From: Eledone cirrhosa
Taxonomy: Eukaryota
DNA length: 64,000 nt
Direction of reading: 5' to 3'
NCBI GenBank assembly: GCA_964016885.1
Contig: OZ024743.1
Location: 78,430,001-78,494,000 of the forward strand
The position numbers and the translations under genes are program-made. Positions within the stretch are counted from its first letter, which is position 1, and every line of letters begins with the position of its first letter. Below are positions 1,207 through 63,392 of this stretch, piece after piece. Under the pieces are notes generated by a model, which ran no database searches, was not told the DNA's origin, and worked only from the letters and a program-made list of their open reading frames with translations.

Positions 1207-4200
1207 TTATTATTATTATTATTATTCCTTGAATCTCAGTCATTGATGTTGGTTAACTGGAAAGTCCGTTGGAATGAATATCAAGCCACTACCTGCAGCC
1301 TCAGATATTCAGGACGTATTTGAGGGTTCTTGCTGTTCCCAGCAAGCATGCCTTTTGAAGCGTTCCAAAAAGCATGAAGGGGCCGATTTTCTTTAACCAT
1401 CCCTGGAAACTTTTGGAGATAGTCCCCAGTGCGCCTATGACAATAGGGATCACTTTGACTTCATGGCAGTTCCAAATCCTTTTTACCTCCCACTTTAAGT
1501 CTTGGTATCGGTTAATTTTCTCCCTCTCCTTCTCTTGCACTCTCGTGTCGAATGGGCAGGCCACATCCACAATCAGACACGCTCTTTTTTCTTTGTCCAC
1601 AACCACCAGGTCAGGTCTATTGTGTTCCAGTTTCTTGTCCGTCTGTATCCTAAAATCCCACAGCACCTTCACTTGATCGTTCTCCATCACCACCTCTGGC
1701 CTATGCTCATACCATTTCTCAGAATGTGGTAAATTGTTTACTTTGCATAGGTGCCAGTGGATCACCCTGCCCATCACATCATGTCTCCAGCCCTTATAGT
1801 GGGTCTGGGCTAGGTGTTTACACTCGGATACAATGTGAGCCACAGTCTCCTCTCTCTCTCCACAGATCCTGCACAGTGGGCTAGCCTCCTCCTTGTAAAT
1901 ATGGTGTTTCAGCCACTTCGTTTTGAGGGCCTGCTCCTGCGCAGCCATTAACATTCCTTCTGTAGCCTTTTTGAGGTCTCCTCTTCTCAACCAGTTCCAT
2001 GTCTGTGGATCTCTAAATTCAGTTTTCTCAAAGAAGGTACTATGAAGGGATTTTTCCTGAAGGCTGCTCTTTCTCCTTGATGTTATTTCCTCCTTGGACA
2101 TCCCCTGACCTACTGTCCCCTCCTTCAGTACAGTTCTGAGCATTGGCTCCTTACTATAGGTCACGTATTTGTATGAGTTGTTTTTCTCCATCTGAACACA
2201 GTCCTCTATGCTGATAAGACCTCTTCCACCCTCAGATCTCCTTAGGTAGAGTCTATCGACATCACTCCTCTTGTGGAACATGTTGTAGATAGTCAATAGC
2301 TTCCTAGTCTTCCTATCCATTTCTTTTTGTTCAGCAACATTCCATCTCAGAATTCCCGCACTGTACCTAATAATAGACACAGCTCGGGAATTTACTGCGC
2401 TTATGGCATTTCTGCTGTTCAGGTGTGACTTCAATACGCTCCTTATTCTCCGAATGTATTCAGTTCTTAACAATTCCTTCATTTTTTTGTTCTTTATGCT
2501 ATCAGCCTCCAGAACGCCCAAATACTTGTATCCTTCCTCAGAGTCAATTTCCTTTATCATCTCACCCGTTGGTATCTGGATTCCGTTACTTCTGCTCAAC
2601 CTACCCCTCCTCATCACAATGACTCCACACTTACTAATACCAAACTGCATACATATATCACAGCTGAAAATGCGGACAGTGTCAACAAGCACATCCAACT
2701 CCTTCTCACTCTTCCCGAAGAGCTTAAGATCGTCCATGAAGAGGAGGTGATTGATGGTAAGCTCTCCCTTTCCCAACTTGTATCCTGCTCTCACTTTTCG
2801 CAGCATAATGGTCAAGGGCATCAGGGCAAGGACAAACAACAGAGGGGACAGGCTATCTCCCTGGAAGATACCTCTCTTGATCTTCACGCTTCCCAAGGAT
2901 TCTCCAGTTGATGTCAACTCTGTCTCCCAGGACCCCATACTCCTGCCCAGCAACTGTCTGATGTTATCTGCCACCTTGAAGATCTCCAGGCTTTTGGTGA
3001 TCCAAGAGTGAGGCACCATGTCAAATGCCTTTCTGTAGTCTATCCATCCCATGGCAAGATCAGTGTGTCTCCTCCTGCAATTCCCCATTACCATCTTATC
3101 AATAAGTAACTGGTCCTTTGTACCACGTGACTTCTTTCGGCATCCTTTCTGTTCGTCCGGTAACAAGTTGTTTGTGTGGAGGTGATGGTAGATTTCCTCA
3201 GACACAATGCTCGTCAACAGTTTCCACATTACGGACAGACATGTGATAGGTCTATAGTTGGTAACATCATTACCCTTGATTCGGTCTTTCATTATCAGAA
3301 CTGTGGTACCTTTTGTCAACCACTCTGGCACCTCACCCGACACCAAGCAGTCATTGAACATGGCCGTCAGCTTCGGGTGGAGGGATGTTAAATGTTTAAT
3401 CCAATACCCCTGCACACCATCTGGGCCTGGTGATTTCCAGTTGGTTAGTTTTTTGGCCTGCCCCTTAAGAGTTTCAACTGTGATACTCAAATCAGTTTGT
3501 TGTTGTGCCTGCTCACCGATCTCCCTCTGTACTGTCTCAATCCACCCTGCCTGGGCATTGTGTCTAACATCCTGCTCCCATATTCCTCTCCAGAATGTTT
3601 TAGTTTGCTCCGCCCCAGGGATCAAGTCGTTGCCTCTTTCTTTCCCCTCAAGCTGTCCAAACAGCATCTTCTGGTTGTTGTCGAACATGCGGTTCTGTTT
3701 ATACTGACTGACTCTGTTCTCGTATCGCCTGATTTTTGCACTCTTTGCTACAATGCGTTGCTTCAGTTCCTCTATGATAATATTTAGCTTTTTACTCCTA
3801 GTTTTGTATTTTATTTCCAGTCTATTTTTAGTGCCTATGTTTTTTAGTGTCCCATTCAGTAGTGACTCAAGCTTTCCTATGTCATTTCTCATTTCCCCGA
3901 TTTGCCCACTCAGTCGCTTCTTCCACCACGGCTCTGCTCTTTCTTGTCTGTTGTTTCCTCTCGCTTTTATACCAAGTAGTTTCCTCACCGTATTTGCTGC
4001 TGCTTTGAGGATATTGTTGCACTGGTGAAGGCTTCTCGCCTCAAGGTATGGGATGACTTTGTTTACCTTAGCTGTTGTTTCTTTTAACTTTTTCCTGTCT
4101 ACAAATCTTAGGTTCATAGGTCTCCCACTATCATTGTTCAATTCATCTACCACTAAATTTAGGATGTCAACCGAATCTTGTCCTAGCCCGTCAGCATTCA

Positions 4201-5739
4201 TCTCCTCAGTGGCCGTATCTCTGTTCCAGGTATTATTTATCTCAGTATTCAGATCATTGTCTGCTTCGGGTGGTTCCTCCGTTCTCAGGACCTCTTCACC
4301 TTCATTTCCCACTGGCTCGCTTGTCTGGCATACTACACCCGCCATCTCCAAGCCATTCTCTCTGCTCAGTTCCTCCAGTTCCAGCTCGCTTATCCATCCA
4401 TTAGTTCTTATTACCCGAGCCTGCCCGGCCAATTTTTGTTCATCTAATTTAAATAAACCAATCTCGTTCCAGATGTTATGCATCCGTCTCCTGTAGCCCC
4501 TCTCCTTGGGGTTACTTTTCAGGTAACATTGCATAACAGTTCTATTCAATTCTTTCGTCCAGTTGGTTCTGGCCCCTTTCCTTCTTCTCCTTCCTCCAAC
4601 ATCAGCAGTATTTGGTTGACAGTCAGGTTCCTGCTGCTGAGCCAGGGGGCACCTGTTGGGTGAGAGTCTGTCACATGACGTTCTAGTCTCCATTTCACCG
4701 TTATTCGAACTGTTTATGTTCGATATTTAAACACTCTTATCGAGGATTGGCGAATGTATGGTTACATATCCATCTGTGGATCCGCCATTCCACTTGGCCC
4801 TTGTGTGGCATTATCACCACGCTGTATACGAACACACATAAACAAACAAACACACGGGCAGAAAGGGCCCCAAAAATGAATAAGCATAAGTTTCATTGTA
4901 ATGTAGTGTTCGAATGTCTGACTTAGTTTTTGTTTTTTAAGTTTTAGTTTTTCCCCCCTCTTCTCTGTCCGTCCGCCTGCTTCTCTCTTCATTCTTATTT
5001 TCTTTACGTTTTTGGGGTTTCTTTTTTTGTTTTTGTTTTTCTCTGTTTGCTTTTCTCGTTTTTGCTGTTGTTGCTGTGCTGCTTTGGTTTTGTTGTTTGT
5101 TTTTTCTTTTTTCTTTTGAGTCTATCTATATATTTTGATGTCTTCCTCTTTGTTAGTAGTAGGAATTCTATAATGTGGAAGTAGCAGCCAGCAGGGAGAA
5201 GTGGGAGACTGGCGGCGGTAGCGATACTGAGACAGTGGTGGTGGTGATGTCGATACCGAGGCAGTGGTGGCGGTGATGTGACCGTATTACTGTAGTGATG
5301 GTGCTGTAGCGGTGGCAGCAGTGAAGGAGTGAAGAGGTGGTGGCGGCGGTGATGGGATAATGGTGGTAATGATGGCCGTAGTGAGCGGTTGAAAATGCCG
5401 TTATCTGGCTGTTGTGTTTAGTGTACACAGATGATGGGGTGGGTGGTGTATCTAGTTTCTGGTGTTGGTGAGTTTGGCTGTCCTATATAGTGTAGACAGA
5501 GGAGAGGAGGGGGGGGGGGGGTTCTTCTTCCATTTATAGCCATTTTCTTTTTTGGATATACAGTGTACAATACAAAATTGAATATTTGAATATTTGAGCC
5601 TTATAACAATATATTTTGGGTCTGAATTTTTTGGGGGCTCAAGCCGGGTGCGTTACGTAGCATTTGTACTAAGAGTTGTTATTTCACAAATGATTTAAAT
5701 ATGTTAAAAATTCAAAACTTACGGGAGCGATTTCATGAC

Positions 5740-12009: not shown

Positions 12010-12545
12010 ACAAGGGTTGCAGTGGGCAGTCTCCAAACCACTGCACACTAATCCCAGAGCTCCATCAAACTCTCCTACAGCACCACACCTAACTTCGCAC
12101 AAAACATCGTTTCCTCAAACAACAAAAACTCAACCCCTATGTAAGAAATAACCTAGACATCAGTGGAGAGCCGACCAGGAGGTGTAACTGCCCTGATAGA
12201 TCTACGTGCCCCCTCAATAACAAATGCCGAGAACGTAACGTGATCTTCCAGTGCAACGTGAGGACAGACACCTCCAACAAAGCTTATATAGGAATAACTT
12301 CAAGACCCGGCTCTACCGACACCGACATACTTTCCGAAACCCGGTCCGGCGACATGCCACTACACTTTCGGGTCACATCTGGGACATCCAAGATAGTAAT
12401 ATAACCTACAATTTCACTTGGAGCTTACTGTCCAGAGCTAACGCTTACACGGGAGGACGCCGTCCGTGTAACTTATGCTCGGAGGAAACATTACAAATGC
12501 TGTTTTCGAAGGACCAACTCCTAAACAAGAAAGACGAACACAGAT
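12010..12545 (+). mobile_element. PLE GIY-YIG C-terminal fragment (Neptune-like)
   Basis: IKLSYSTTPN, CNCPDRSTCPLNNKC, AYIGIT, then frameshift to FKTRLYRH..TTLSGHIW..CNLCSEE..LLNKKDE. Confidence 0.85.
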
Positions 12546-12599
12546 TGCGTAGGACTTACCTCGCCCTCAAACCCCATAACGACCAAATGGGGAAAACCA

Positions 12600-13808: not shown

Positions 13809-13904
13809 TATTTCATTAATATGGTTTTCGTAACATAATTTTAAAAATGGTTCTTACGTAAAATTGTTGAAAAATTTTAATTTATCTAGGAACATTTTAA
13901 AGTG
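13809..13904. repeat. ~96-bp inverted repeat arm pairing with 17969-18064
   Basis: Reverse-complement match with a few differences. Confidence 0.85.
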
Positions 13905-14213: not shown

Positions 14214-14268
<55 letters not shown>

Positions 14269-14270
14269 TG

Positions 14271-14321
14271 AGATTCTACAGGACTAGAACTGTTTCATTC
14301 TTTAGAAATCATCAGGAATCT
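14271..14321 (-). ncRNA. Type I hammerhead ribozyme (inverted twin of 17423-17473)
   Basis: agattc-CTGATGA-tttctaaagaat-GAAA-cag..ctg-TA-gaatct. Confidence 0.85.
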
Positions 14322-14449
14322 GGCTTTCCAAAATAAATGTTGTGGTATTTATATCTTTTCAGGTTGTAGGAGAGGGTGGGGAGTGGGATGGGTGGAGGTC
14401 ATTGGTTGAAAGAAAAGGGAATTCATTAAAAGATAATTTTTTAAGGCTG

Positions 14450-17422: not shown

Positions 17423-17473
17423 AGATTCCTGATGATTTCTAAAGAATGAAACAGTTCTAGTCCTGTAGAATCT
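17423..17473 (+). ncRNA. Type I hammerhead ribozyme, predicted GUA cleavage after 17467
   Basis: Perfect 6-bp stem I, CTGATGA 17429-17435, GAAA 17448-17451, stem III Acag/ctgT. Confidence 0.85.
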
Positions 17474-17655
17474 CATCTATATTAAAACTTTTATACTCTG
17501 CTATGTATTGAGTACCTTACTTACTGTGGTTACCTCCGATTCAACCCGGAATAACTTACTATATATATATATATAACGAAGGAAATGTGGTAAGGAACCA
17601 GGTGGACCATAACGCACCAAAGTACTCAATACTTAGGGTAGTAGAGTGGGTAATC

Positions 17656-17762
17656 GGAACGAGTAGGACCCCGACGGCTGAGCTCAAGCCGTTTCGACGG
17701 CTAATTCTGGACGAATTAGCCGTCGAAACGGCTTGAGCTCAGCCGTCGGGGTCCTACTCGTT

Positions 17763-17764
<2 letters not shown>
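17656..17764. repeat. Perfect 52-bp-arm palindrome built from a hammerhead 3' half
   Basis: Arms 17656-17707 and 17713-17764 are exact reverse complements; each reads GAAACGGC-ttgagctca-GCCGTC. Confidence 0.9.
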
Positions 17765-17851
<87 letters not shown>

Positions 17852-18162
17852 TGTATATATATATATACTGCAATGTAGTGCAGCTGTAATAAGGAATATG
17901 TATTTTATTCTCGCAAGCCTCTTGATTCCGTCCTCGCCAAGACTGTCTGTTGTTTTAAGTAACAAAACCACTTTAAAATGTTCCTAGATAAATTAAAATT
18001 TTTCAACAATTTTACGTAAGAACCATTTTTAAAGTTATGTTACGAAAACCATATTAATGAAATAATTAATATCTTTTGTGAATCGCTGCAAATTTTTCAT
18101 TAATTCACCTGGAATATATTTCATTAAAAATAATATAGTTGATATACATAGACCCTGAGCAA

Positions 18163-19395: not shown

Positions 19396-19403
19396 GGAAT
19401 TAT

Positions 19404-19660
19404 AGTTATATTGGTGCTACTTCTTCTAAATTTAAAGAAAGGTGGAACAGCCATCACCACTCGTTTAAAAGAAAAGATAAAAGATTTAGCACGCCTCTCT
19501 CTGAATTTATTTGGTCGCTTAAAAATAATAATATTGAATATTCCCTTTCTTGGCAGAAACTTTCTAGTGCTTTGCTTTATGAAAATATATCTATATCTAA
19601 GGAATGTGACCTCTGTACCACAGAGATTCTCCACATCATTCAAAATAGGCAATTAATTGT
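19404..19660 (+). mobile_element. PLE GIY-YIG fragment (not in the ORF track frame) with an inverted pLTR at its 5' side
   Basis: Manual translation: SYIGATSSKFKERWNSHHHSF..STPLSEFIWSLK..W..ECDLCTTEILHII. Confidence 0.85.
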
Positions 19661-21336: not shown

Positions 21337-21409
21337 GCCTCTGTGGCCCAATGGATAAGGCACCGGCCTCCTAAGCCGGGGATTGCGGGTTCGAGTCCCG
21401 TCAGAGGTA
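21337..21409 (+). tRNA. tRNA-Arg(CCT): tRNA-Arg, anticodon CCT
   Basis: 73 nt; acceptor GCCTCTG/CAGAGGT, anticodon arm ccggc-CTCCTAA-gccgg, T arm gcggg-TTCGAGT-cccgt; T5 run just downstream. Confidence 0.95.
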
Positions 21410-22111: not shown

Positions 22112-24403
22112 TGAGTTGAGATGGAGGGTCTGTGCTTTTTCTCACATCTGGTTGGTCTCTGAATGTTACTTGTTTTATATGGAAAAAGTGGCTCGAAATG
22201 CCAGGTTTTTCGAGAAGTAATTTGATTGGTTTGTCAATAATTATAATAAATTTCGCGCCAGTTCGCGTTACAATAGTTCTTCAAATAAGAGAGGGGGGGG
22301 GGGTGTCACAGGTTGTTTTTTCATATATGAGTGTTTGAATTTCTTTTTACTTGAAAAAAGGAGGCTCACGAAGGCTTTTTTTTGGTTGGTTATAAATGAA
22401 ATTTGGCTGTCACGTGAACAAGTTTTCATTACATTTTTGCGCCCTTATTTGGAAAACTATTCTGTAGTCTTTATAGTGAATGTTATGACAATGGAGAGAT
22501 AGTGGTCAAGAGAAAAGTGATTGGGAGAAATGTTCTGGTTCAGTGAATATGGCCAGCTCGCCGGGGTGTCAGAGTTCAGATTTTCTATTGAAGTGAAGAT
22601 ATGTATGTTTATTTGTGTGCTTGTGTGTGTGTGTGTATGTGTGTATTGGAAGATGATTCTATTAGTAGAGATGGGGGAGGGAGTTGTGTGTGTGTGTATA
22701 TGGGTGTTATGTGTGTGTGTGCGAGTATGTTAAGATGGAGAGAATATATATTTTGTGTGTGTGTATATATATATGTGTGTAGGAAAGTGGTTCTATTAGT
22801 AGAAATGGGGAGGGAGTTGTAGGTGTGGGGGTTGTTATGTGTGTGTATGGGTGTTATGTGTGTGGGAGTATGGTTAGCATGTTAAGATGAAGAGAATATA
22901 TATATATATATATTGTGTGTGTGTGTGTGTGTGTAGGAAAGTGATTCCTTTAGTAGGAATATTTTTGAATGAACATATTTTCCTTACTTTTTCGTGTTTG
23001 CTGTTGTATTGCCAGTGCAATCGTATGTTAAGGTTTATTTAGTTCGGGTTTTTATTTTCTAAAGTAGAAGGTGTTATGTGTGTGTGTGTGTATGTCATAT
23101 TGTGGTGTTGACATAATGTATATTAAACCTTATTTAATGTTGGTCTATATTTTTGAATAAACATATTTTCCTTATTTATTCGCATTTGTTCTGTTGTATT
23201 GTTAGCGCAAAGGTAAAATGGGAAGACTTGGAATTTGGGTGTCTTACTACTTGCGCAAATGTCTAGATGTGCACTTAGTGGTATCTGTCTCGTGGTTGGA
23301 TCTCGTAATTGTTGGCGATGAACTGTCATTCTGTTTCTGAGTGTGAATTTAGTTTGTCCTATATAATCTTCATTTCATCCTTTAAATTTAATGGCATAAA
23401 GTAGATTTTTTGATGAGCAAGTGAAGTGATTTTTTTACAGTAAAATTTTGTCCTGATTTAAATGTATACGTGTTGCCTTCAATGAGGTGAGTGCAGGTTC
23501 CACAATTAGAGCAACCACATTTTTTGATACTTGGTTGTGGGTTTGTGGTAGGTAATTTGGCATTGGTGAGTAATGTTTTCAGTGATTTTGGTTGTCTTTT
23601 GCTTTTGATTATTTTGTGTGTTTCAAGGGCTTTTTTCATTCTTGGGTTTTGTTTTAGTAGTGGGATGTTATTGTGAATAGTGTTGTAAGCTTCCGCATTT
23701 CTTGGGTTGTGTGTTGAGATATATGATAGAATATTGGACGTACCTTGAATTTGTTTCTGTTTCCGTAATTCATCAATGCCTATTGCTTTAGCCCTTTCTA
23801 TTCCATTATTTATTAGTAATAGTGGGTACTCTCTCTCGAGTAGAATTTCCTTTAATTCTTGAAGTCTTTTATTTCGCGTTTCATAATTGGAGACAATTGT
23901 GCAAATTCTTCTTGCTAGGTTAAAAGGAATGTTCGTCTTCGTGTGCTTTGGATGGTTGGAGGTGAATAGCAGATATTGTTTGGAATCTGTTGGTTTGTAG
24001 TGTATGTCAGTTTCGATATTTGTGTCATTTTTTGTGATTAAGATGTCCAGAAATGGGAGTTGATCTTGGCTGTATTCCAAAAATGTAATGAAAACTTGTT
24101 CACGTGACAGCCAAATTTCATTTATAACGAACCAAAAAAAAAGCCTTCGTGAGCCTCCTTTTTTCAAGTAAAAAGAAATTCAAACACTCATATATGAAAA
24201 AACAACCTGTGACAACCCCCCCTCTCTTATTTAAAGAACTATTGTAACGCGAACTTGCGCGAAATTTATTATAATTATTGACAAACCAATCAAATTACTT
24301 CTCGAAAAACCTGGCATTTCGAGCCACTTTTTCCATATAAAACAAGTATCATTCAGAGAACAACCAGATGTGAGAAAAAGCACAGACCCTCCATCTCAAC
24401 TCA

Positions 24404-58249: not shown

Positions 58250-59848
58250 AAAGTGTCGCCGCAAGTGGCTTACCAGACGAGGTGTTTGCCACCGTGGAAC
58301 GGGAAAATGGTCATGCCATCTGGCCTTTTGCCGTCCCCTCGCTCCAGCCCAACCGGCTCGAGCTAGGAAGGGAAGCCTGCAGCGACCAAGCCATGCTTTA
58401 TGACCTCATTGAGGGCAGCATGGCGTGGAATACGGCCGGCACTGTGGCGACAGGAAAGCGGATGGAGGCCGAAAGATTCCACGGTGGATCCACAGCGACA
58501 TTGGTGTGGTTCGCAGATCCGGAGGCCAAGCCTCAAGGAAACGCCGATTCGCAGGCTATGGTTGTCTAGCTGCGTGCCAGTGGAGAAGGGGGGCAGGGCA
58601 TGGAGCCAGGAGCAACTGTGGGGTCTGGAGGCCGCACGAAAACAGGCAAGGCGGTGCTGGTCGAGCCGGCGCGTGAGCCTGTCTGAAGCCAGGCTGCACT
58701 GGATGGCATCCCAAGTGCTTTGGGAGGACTTCACGTCAGCAGAGGTAGAAGGAGGAAGGACGTCTACTGGGGTAAGTCCCAGCCGGTCCCACGTCTCTCA
58801 GGCGGCCTCACATTCTCTGAACAGAGGGTTCTATTGTGTTTTGGAGAACACTGCTAGCGAGGACGCGGCATGAGGTTACAGACGAAAGAAATGCCGACAA
58901 AGCCAGTGAGATCGGGGACCGGAAGCCAAGGCCGCCATACCTGACAGGTAAAGTCACCTGTTGGCATCCAATGACGTCAAACCTGACATTGCATATCTCC
59001 TCGGTTGCTGCTCGGATACAAGTATCGAGGTCAGCGAGGAGAGATGCGTGGGTGTAGCACGGAGCGCTGCGAAGGGTATAGAGGAGCTTCGGCATGGCGA
59101 AGCAGTTCCGTCGATCAAACCCAGTCGGCTCGTGAGGGTCTGGAACTGTTGAAGCCTGGACCTGATGGTGGAGCGGATGGATCGGTGACCCGAGGATGAG
59201 GACATCCTCTTTGGGGGTCACCTGTACCTGGCGGTGAATGGACCGCACGCCCGAGACGGAGGCTGCAAAGATCTCAGCATCGTGGCTGACATTTACCACT
59301 TCCGACTTGGCCGAGTTGACCTGGAGGCCGATTCCCACCAGGGCAGGAACCTCCGATTGTAGGTCATGGCAGATAGTCTGTACAGGCCCGCCCAACATAG
59401 CATCATCCAGATACCAAACGTTGAGATGGGCCATGATACTCCGGACGATGTGGTCTATGACCGTATCAGCAGCAAGGAGCATGCTCGGGGCTCCATACGA
59501 GAGGTAGGCCAGCGGGTAGGCAGAGGGGGCTCGGCTGAGGCAGGCATCGAGCAGATGGTCTCGCCGTATGCAGTTAAAAGCATTCCCCATGTCAAGCTTG
59601 ACAATGAGGTGCCTGAAGTCCCTGGATGCCGATTCCGGTGGGGAGCTGTTGAAGAACCGTCTGGTTGCATGTGCGGCCCCCTCACAGCCATCGGACACGC
59701 CGACACCCAGTTGCACCGGACTGAACTCCTCACCCAGTTCGGGTGTTATGGACCTGCAGACCACCTTGGCAGCCAGCCTCCGGAAGACATTGCCCACAAC
59801 GATGGGGCGTATGCCACCCTCTTTCTTCCCGAGAGCGGTGAGGCTAGC
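58250..59848 (-). mobile_element. CRE-clade non-LTR retrotransposon fragment (RT, zinc knuckle, RLE), decayed
   Basis: GGIRPIVVGNVFRRLAAK, QLGVG, KLDMGNAFN, WYLDD, LPVRYGGLG, WLHALP, LRLG..CRCG..HPLSC..RHAALN, GKRPDG; QGDP motif region deleted. Confidence 0.9.
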
Positions 59849-59957
59849 CGAAACACTTATTATTTTACATTACTCTGGAGTGAACAAACTAACCTGCGTA
59901 CTTCGTTGAGTGCTCCTAACTGCATACTGAGGTGTCGGTAAACAACCAACACATACT

Positions 59958-59996: not shown

Positions 59997-60099
59997 AGAG
60001 TGGCGACCCGACAGCTGAGCGCTTGCCGTTTCAACAGCTAGTTCTCGACTGGAAGTAGCTGTTAAAACGGTAAGAGCTCAGCCGTCAGGCCCCGACTCT
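59997..60099. repeat. Imperfect palindrome homologous to 17656-17764
   Basis: ccgacagctgagc..ccgtttcaacagcta / tagctgttaaaacggt..gctcagccgtc. Confidence 0.8.
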
Positions 60100-61594
60100 A
60101 TAATATAACCATAGTCTACTATCCCAAGTACCGAGTACTCTGTTGAGTAATGGTTTAACTATTTTATCTGGTTCTATTCTGATATATCCTATGTTATAGC
60201 TCAACCTACCTTTTCCTATCGAAAACCGTAACATCAGTAACAAGTTTGACCTGATCTCTAAGATTTCATGTGTCATTTATACAACCACAGGAGCCAGTCA
60301 GAACCAACGACTTGTTTGACATTCTTACATCAGTTCAGTTTTCCAGCACCTTCCTTACGATCCTTGCGATTCCTATTAATGTGGTTTTCTATAATATATT
60401 TGTTGGAATTTCGATCCCAATATTCCAATATTGCTCGTGTTTCCATTAATAAAAAATGGTGGAGTGTGGGGTAGATTGTATTGTTCCAATTGGTGGAATG
60501 TACTTATTCCATCTATCTGTCTGGCATCTGATGGAAGCAGTTATCATTTACCAAACATCTGTTGGTCTAAATTATTCCAAGGAACGGGCAGACATATCAC
60601 ATTACTGTATTACTGTCAGCCTCATGCAATAAGATTATAAATGATTAAAGTTGCTGTCAGCTAGAGATAGTTTTACTAACCCAACTCTAATCCAGCAACT
60701 GCTTCTTATCTGCATTTGTTAACCAATCTATCTTGCACATTTTCCTTTCTTATATATTTACTCAAGATTTTTAACGTCTATTTTTTTGGTTCGTTTTTTT
60801 TTTTATTTTGGTTCGTATTTCTAATTTTTGTCTTCTTTCAAAAATTCTTTTTTCGGTGGTTCTTCTGTCTAATATTGGTTTTGATTGGTTTTCCAAGTAA
60901 AAGTGGCGATAATTAAAGAATTGGTGATTCTATTTAAGGAAGTACTTCGTTACATGAAAAAAAATAGAAAACTTTACTGAAACATTCTAATGGTAAAACA
61001 GAAGCAGGAAGTGACAGATAGGAACGAGAATTAAAACATCCGCACTGATGATACATACATGTACAGAAACAGGTACACACTGTATAGAAAGTCACACACA
61101 CATATATCCATGTACAGAAACATGTATACATTGTACACACTGTATAGAAAGTTACACACACACACACACGCACACACGCACATATACATATATATATATA
61201 TGTGTGTGTGTAGAGAGAGAGAGGGGGAAGAAGGAAAGAGAATGATGAATTTATATATATATATATGTTTGTATATACATATATTTACGCAAATACACAC
61301 ATACACTCACATACACACACACATATATGTGTGTGTGTGTGTAGAGAGAGAGGGGGGGGGGAGAAAGAAAGAGATAGATGAATATACATATATATGTTTC
61401 TGTATATATATATATATACATATATTTACGCAAATACACACAAGCTCGCGCGTAGATATAGAAACATTCGTTACACAGAAACATACATTCACATAGATAT
61501 AGGGAGGAATACAGACGACCATATATATACACACATAGAGGGTGTATAAATTTATATACATTCAAAATAGTTTGAATTCTCTGGTGAAAACTGA

Positions 61595-63153: not shown

Positions 63154-63392
63154 TCAAAATATCTCAGATTTCCTATTGAGCAGGTTTTGTCTGGAGTAAA
63201 CTATGGCATGAGTTTCCAGAAGGCACAGGTTACACATTTTGCTCGGTAGGCGATAAGGTGCAGACTTACCCACCTGTCTCCAATTAAGAGTATAGGAGGT
63301 GACGGCTTTTTTTAAAACAGAAATATAGCCTGCCAACGAGGTTGTATTCTTAAGCCTATCATGCCTAAAGGTGCTTCTATGTGAGTTATATA
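63154..63392 (-). mobile_element. PLE GIY-YIG C-terminal fragment
   Basis: YNSHRSTFRH..TSLAGYI..W..PY..CNLCLLE..LLNRKSEI. Confidence 0.85.

Follow-up and report, generated by a model that had tools for sequence, protein, structure and literature searches.

The palindromic element at positions 17576-17764 of the window, by which we mean the whole analysed stretch of 64,000 nt from Eledone cirrhosa (contig OZ024743.1), is best explained as a stump-sized head-to-head insertion of a Penelope-like element (PLE). With a probability of about 0.75 it arose from two separate target-primed reverse transcriptions on a cut (TA)n repeat, which ran off and were subsequently end-joined.

The perfect inverted repeat reported in the initial annotation was recovered in full: the arms at 17656-17707 and 17713-17764 are complementary at 52 of 52 positions and are separated by a 5-nt spacer, and the next-longest perfect inverted repeat in the window, microsatellites aside, does not exceed 22 bp. 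The predicted RNA fold of the palindrome reaches -130.6 kcal/mol (z -16.3; equalled by 0 of 200 shuffles). Both strands read the 3' strand of stem II, GAAAC, stem III, GTC and GGGGT, i.e. each strand corresponds to the 3' half of a type I hammerhead without its 5' half. As had been claimed, no CTGANGA is found on either strand of 17576-17764, and an Rfam gathering scan of the window returned tRNA only and no hammerhead. The (TA)n borders expected on both sides are present as well, on the left at 17560-17575, where the last ATA also fits the long end of the element (TAT in the parent), and on the right at 17765-17867. The outline drawn between them encloses a real element, but one that is not symmetrical, since 17576-17655 is not flank but an 80-nt tail (minus strand) attached to one arm only. 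The long, tailed arm (17656-17712, minus strand) follows as the 3' half of the hammerhead, with GAAA at 17695-17692, GTC at 17675-17673 and the 3' strand of stem I at 17672-17668. Its last five nucleotides (17708-17712, minus strand), which form the apparent loop of the palindrome, are a piece of loop II present in the long arm and absent from the short one. The short, tail-less arm occupies 17713-17764 on the plus strand; its stem II 3' strand (17714-17724) is followed by GAAA (17725-17728), stem III, GTC (17745-17747) and the 3' strand of stem I (17748-17752), and its short end lies at 17764. Neither microhomology nor inserted bases occur at the junction 17712/17713. The proposal that the palindrome is centred on stem II needs correction: the centre adjoins this stem, but it sits 1-6 nt inside the 3' edge of loop II and not in the stem itself. 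The long arm ends 17 nt upstream of GAAA, one base before the putative RNA start discussed below. Furthermore, the C at 17655 is private to the window copy (A in 6717 of 6820 first-mate-plus reads of run X20) and costs the inverted repeat about 3 bp. Judged from its sequence, the insertion cannot act as a ribozyme, because neither strand holds both halves of the core, and if transcribed it would give a long hairpin. Nothing in the analysis suggests selection on it; taken singly, the window locus is an ordinary dead insertion.

The suggested retrotransposon origin was confirmed, the long arm together with its tail (137 nt, 17576-17712) being 95.6% identical to the pLTR of a PLE at a locus that we call L095. 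The parent with an intact core could be found, although not by the proposed search with CTGANGA. That search gave 39 matches, which we read as junction chimeras and not as parents, because the parent core is TTGANAA; two of these chimeras led to the genuine upstream sequence of the parent, and a search with the latter yielded 4,392 arms carrying the whole hammerhead. The parent hammerhead consists of stem I (ACCCC/GGGGT), the core TTGANAA (UUGANAA in the RNA), a stem II of 10 pairs and a loop II of approximately 34-38 nt. The alignment fits a type I fold with 91.8% of the cells paired, 40 of 43 distinct arms have U3:A8 instead of C3:G8, and position 7 is freely variable. Compared with a diverged subfamily, stem II shows three compensatory pairs, which represent few independent events. 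The type I fold, the compensatory pairs and U3:A8 all indicate that the parent pLTR carries a hammerhead, and the U3-A8 variant is known from PLEs according to the accessible text of PMC4209133.

Locus L095 contains, in this order, an inverted truncated end with tail, a tandem pLTR, a 719-aa ORF and a final tail-less pLTR. The RT motifs FDI, MG and YRDD as well as a C-terminal VIY/YIG region were recognised in the ORF. A direct Pfam scan of the ORF gave 0 families and a PDB sequence search gave no match; its Atlas look-alikes (0.96-0.99) carry GIY-YIG, HTH_animal and RVT_1 on some members only, and 2054 relatives at E<=1e-20 were obtained among 8000 scored. The available sections of PMC8557442 characterise the Hydra clade of C-terminal EN+ PLEs by RWK, DKT, a CxCx5C linker, CxxC and CxH around E and N, the absence of CCHH and insertion into (TA)n. 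The ORF displays RWR (RWK in most of the 20 aligned relatives), DKT, CNC-x5-C, CNLC and CKH, no CCHH motif was seen in its 719 aa, and the family is inserted in (TA)n. Hence, parent and clade are alike in the RWK-type motif, DKT, CxCx5C, CxxC, CxH, the missing CCHH, the (TA)n target and the presence of a hammerhead, whereas the parent core with U3:A8 and a long loop II is not a canonical hammerhead, and the unit of about 3.1 kb between tandem cores slightly exceeds the size given there for the clade ('generally <3 kb'). The parent is an endonuclease-bearing (EN+) PLE with Hydra-clade protein motifs.

The arms of the family end at two sites of the parent, a short one at +58 and a long one at +138, and at both TAT comes next in the parent. 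The tail is the parental sequence from the short to the long end, which continues into the 5' UTR. Among 97 head-to-head pairs, fetched with patterns that placed no condition on the arm 3' end, 91 combine a long with a short arm, while two are long+long, one is short+short and three were unclassified. In the raw reads of an independent DNA run, loose ends in TA repeat were found at both element ends in like numbers (3089 and 2924). The spacing between paired arms runs from 1 nt to more than 5 kb, and hence the window element represents the short end of a published continuum of inverted insertions. A partner within 140 nt was present for 94 of 138 arms, which makes the minimal form the commonest product in our samples of arms and junctions, drawn from the start of contig C1 only. 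Moreover, the two arms of a pair are alike in subfamily type in 55 of 60 pairs, compared to 19% by chance, which indicates that a single RNA, or RNA of a single source, usually gave rise to both copies.

Such a one-sided tail could also result from self-priming in general, i.e. the cDNA started at the long end reaches the 5' end of the RNA, folds back and is copied to the short end, with later deletions producing the asymmetry. This possibility, which we regard as unlikely, has been put forward in the literature for palindromic PLE junctions (accessible text of PMC3846280); it would account directly for the long+short rule and is in line with the uniform subfamily type of most pairs. It is also compatible with the window copy, in which the long arm is the longer one as fold-back would give, and among 30 copies read that share the exact junction of the window element, 20 carry the extra bases on their tailed arm and 7 tailed pairs carry them on the tail-less one. 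However, fold-back needs the short arm to be contained within the long arm. Among 65 closely spaced long+short pairs, 25 have a short arm that extends beyond the long one, 24 show the opposite, and 16 are ties; thus, 25 of 49 resolvable junctions break this rule, and the short arm is also the longer in five kilobase pairs (L100, L101, L102, L106 and L107). For 13 of the 138 arms the long partner does not even reach stem III, and in six of these cases it ends within the tail, with no sequence in common. These 13 remain from 15 flagged rows after one with an internal deletion and one overlooked by the regular expression had been removed, and two of them probably represent a single local duplication. 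Furthermore, 5 of the 60 pairs differ at subfamily sites, and at L031, L033, L046 and L053, loci that came from a chimera-selecting pattern, the end of this family is fused to heads from other PLE families. Loss of sequence from palindromes after their insertion might account for some of the asymmetric junctions, but hardly for half of them. End joining generally leaves short overlaps, blunt joins and inserted bases including copies of nearby sequence; the 65 junctions comprise 28 with 1-4 nt of overlap, 11 blunt ones and 26 with inserted bases, some copied from nearby sequence. The reversed loop in L024 was also considered as the result of a parvovirus-like flip-flop, but this idea was dropped because either arm can be the longer.

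For the analysis of where the arms end, 118 arms were used, 20 of the 138 having been dropped for want of a close parent. Counted upstream of GAAA, 82 arms end at 12-18 nt, 10 at 19-22 nt and 2 at 23-59 nt; 14 arms possess the full core and 10 end less than 12 nt from GAAA. The modal end is spread over 12-18 and is not sharp at 18. At offset 18 stands the A of a TTAGT (or TCAGT) motif in loop II, and TTAGT at offsets 16-20 is common to the diverged subfamily, the loop II of which otherwise differs. From the sequence we consider it likely that the RNA 5' end lies at this A. The motif resembles the arthropod initiator; no match to a downstream promoter element is present at +28 to +32 of the parent. 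Where both arms are full length and one base stands between them, this base is G:C in 46 of the first 50 of 164 junctions (hand count). The parent base there is T, and none of 27 non-T full-core arms has G, against roughly 29 in 100 of the 4,392 (hand count). At two-base junctions (n=40) the first base after the cDNA end is C in 14 and G in 13, with 0 cases of the double-cap form CG, which speaks against a pure cap reading, while in 14 of 22 rows with an insertion a G stands before the start (both hand counts). The extra G:C is possibly a cap copy, as an untemplated G has been read in L1 (PMC9341517, in part), and for Penelope an internal promoter within the pLTR has been described (accessible part of PMC2377424).

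It is slightly less probable than fold-back that two primings took place but that the centre was set by a stall of the RT or a break of the RNA at stem II/loop II and not by the transcript start. The hotspot begins exactly where the RT exits the 3' strand of the 10-pair stem with its compensatory pairs, the extra base has mixed polarity, and TTAGT could be a tertiary-contact motif. Against this stand the non-templated G:C precisely at the A of TTAGT and the small number of arms that end in the following 35 nt. In addition, a second hammerhead family centres its palindromes in the genome mostly upstream of its whole core; hence, stem II is no general stop. Two further readings of the hotspot were rejected. 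Its CAG was considered as a splice acceptor, which was dropped because arms often run past it, and ribozyme cleavage as the source of the 5' end would cut at +41 and not at the hotspot; only two long arms (C1:1021995 and C1:11206542) stop at about +41.

The family is large. A DNA search with the window element gave 1379 candidates, and 39 of 40 scored were near full length at 95-100% identity. The flanks of 30 loci that we read are all different and nearly all (TA)n, and their centres vary. By exact pattern, the genome contains 48,542 stem-III arms and 16,184 palindromes in which the two stem II 3' strands lie no more than 30 nt apart, two counts from patterns of unequal stringency that are not usable as a ratio. 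When the symmetry centre was mapped across copies, as the initial annotation had advised, it varied by locus, and the exact centre of the window element was found in only 53 of the 16,184, which belong to several subfamilies and occur in both orientations. Therefore, the palindrome is built anew at each insertion and is not amplified as a fixed unit. Short inverted arms, high copy number, TA flanks and near-identical copies would superficially fit a MITE-like unit re-amplified as a fixed palindrome, or an artefact of the assembly, but both are very improbable given the variable centres, the differing flanks and the arms, which are the pLTR of the parent and not terminal inverted repeats of a DNA transposon; independent DNA runs contain both ends of the element, and one contig crosses the centre (17630-17751). 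Its head-to-head half cores likewise separate the element from non-LTR retrozymes, which consist of head-to-tail monomers with complete hammerheads. Finally, self-priming of the cDNA on the stem II hairpin, as initially proposed, is hardly credible: the centre adjoins stem II and both arms hold its 3' strand, but the product should retain, between its arms, both the loop of about 36 nt and the stem II 5' strand, as is the case in 0 of 7 exact-pattern matches compared to 16,184 palindromes without them. Moreover, the arms stop short of the 5' strand, so that the cDNA is unable to form this hairpin.

Hence, we return to two primings as the preferred explanation. The RT-endonuclease of the element would nick both strands of the self-complementary (TA)n repeat, and one target 3' end would prime at the short site (+58), the other one at the long site (+138); in most cases the two would share one RNA template or use RNA of the same source. 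If priming takes place on the 5' copy of the repeat, both cDNAs would stop at the transcript start, the A at offset 18 from GAAA, and be joined after a loss of 0-6 nt, so that each cDNA would serve as second strand for the other; the missing ribozyme half would never have been part of the template RNA. Priming on the 3' copy would lead to the longer inverted insertions. A further step is tentative, and we give it somewhat less than even odds: PLE integration may be intrinsically two-handed, with an asymmetric RT dimer that primes both target strands on one RNA, mostly from the 5' repeat, at two sites 80 nt apart and with a capped start in loop II. If this is true, promoter-initiated RNA would lack the ribozyme upstream of its start, and the mechanism would be recorded base by base in about 16,000 'double strong-stop' hairpins.

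The surroundings of the element are rich in other repeats. It lies in the (TA)n at the end of a copy of the second hammerhead family, which has a complete type I hammerhead with CTGATGA and its own tail, and of which two arms, 97.8% alike and 3 kb apart, are located at 17423-17559 (plus strand) and 14262-14354 (minus strand). The tails of both elements have the motif GTATTGAGTAC in common, and short palindromes exist in the second family too, mostly centred just upstream of its core (13 rows). Around both lies a 96-bp inverted pair (13809-13904 and 17969-18064, 99% alike), which may mark the two termini of a larger, nested inverted insertion. At 60007-60154 (minus strand), at the end of an apparent other retroelement, there is a diverged version (73%) of the palindromic element with its centre at the same place. 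A 5'-truncated relative of the parent ORF with about 80% aa identity over the endonuclease is located at 12055-12592 (plus strand), and weaker PLE fragments at 19398-19640, 23886-24116 and 63160-63384. By eye, the open frames at 1304-4726 (1141 aa) and 58811-59869 (353 aa), both on the minus strand, look like other non-LTR retroelements. The window also holds a tRNA-Arg(CCT) at 21337-21409 (plus strand) and a 22.6-kb satellite (27698-50349) of about 562 copies of a 40-bp unit with strong strand skew, followed downstream by arrays with 33-, 26- and 29-bp units. Elsewhere in the genome, the end of the parent family appears, also by eye, head to head with other hammerhead-bearing families at L031, L033, L040, L045, L046 and L053, and the partner end at L033 includes a GIY-YIG coding stretch on the opposite strand.

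The geometry as such, which was initially thought to be undescribed, is already published. Head-to-head truncated PLE copies with a tail at one end are reported in the accessible parts of PMC8557442 (Fig. 2 legend), PMC3846280 and PMC2377424 (Fig. 1C), and our family resembles them in the one-sided tail, the palindrome at the junction, the pLTR with hammerhead and the microsatellite target. It differs by a tail of 80 nt instead of the 30-40 nt mentioned there, by the minimal form being the commonest, and by centres that pile up inside the ribozyme loop; moreover, its junctions disfavour the self-priming by which PMC3846280, in its accessible part, explains the inverted copies. Our literature search found the general inverted geometry but neither the miniature form nor the pairing rule in the open literature apart from the supplements of PMC8557442, the family and hammerhead lists of which may include the parent family. 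A retrozyme preprint (10.64898/2026.07.22.740005) deals, in its available part, with tandem units and does not describe the head-to-head half-hammerhead form. It is the pairing rule and the hotspot that bear on the mechanism of PLE integration. The origin of the inverted repeats with a one-sided tail is stated as unresolved in the available text of PMC8557442, and about 16,000 natural junctions in one family discriminate between integration models, the more so as the family gives exact predictions for the start site, the two priming sites and the TAT pairing. Furthermore, such elements are prone to be mis-annotated as MITEs, and ribozyme searches with CUGANGA miss them.

With regard to the ribozyme, the closest counterparts are the Cercyon hammerheads of Schistosoma (PMC4209133, in part), which share the U3-A8 covariation, a short helix I, a palindromic loop III and a long helix II whose 5' end contains unpaired bases, and which also form opposite-strand pairs, 100-700 bp apart. 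Compared to these, helix III of our family has 4-5 pairs, and the window element is devoid of the whole 5' half. With regard to integration, the nearest system is the protein of Poseidon from Anolis (PAc), which in vitro cuts and extends both strands of AT-rich DNA, starts reverse transcription at two internal RNA sites bounding the tail and does not need ribozyme cleavage (PMC11167929, in its available sections); priming at two sites and on two strands by a PLE protein has so far been shown in vitro only. In these sections Frangieh et al. report no difference in start sites between the strands, whereas the long+short pairing in our family is near strict, and hence this rule is not explained by their data. 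Both systems are alike in the two internal start sites that flank the tail. However, PAc belongs to another clade and starts inside the ORF, away from target homology, whereas the starts in the parent family fall in the 5' UTR, at TAT triplets that match the (TA)n target.
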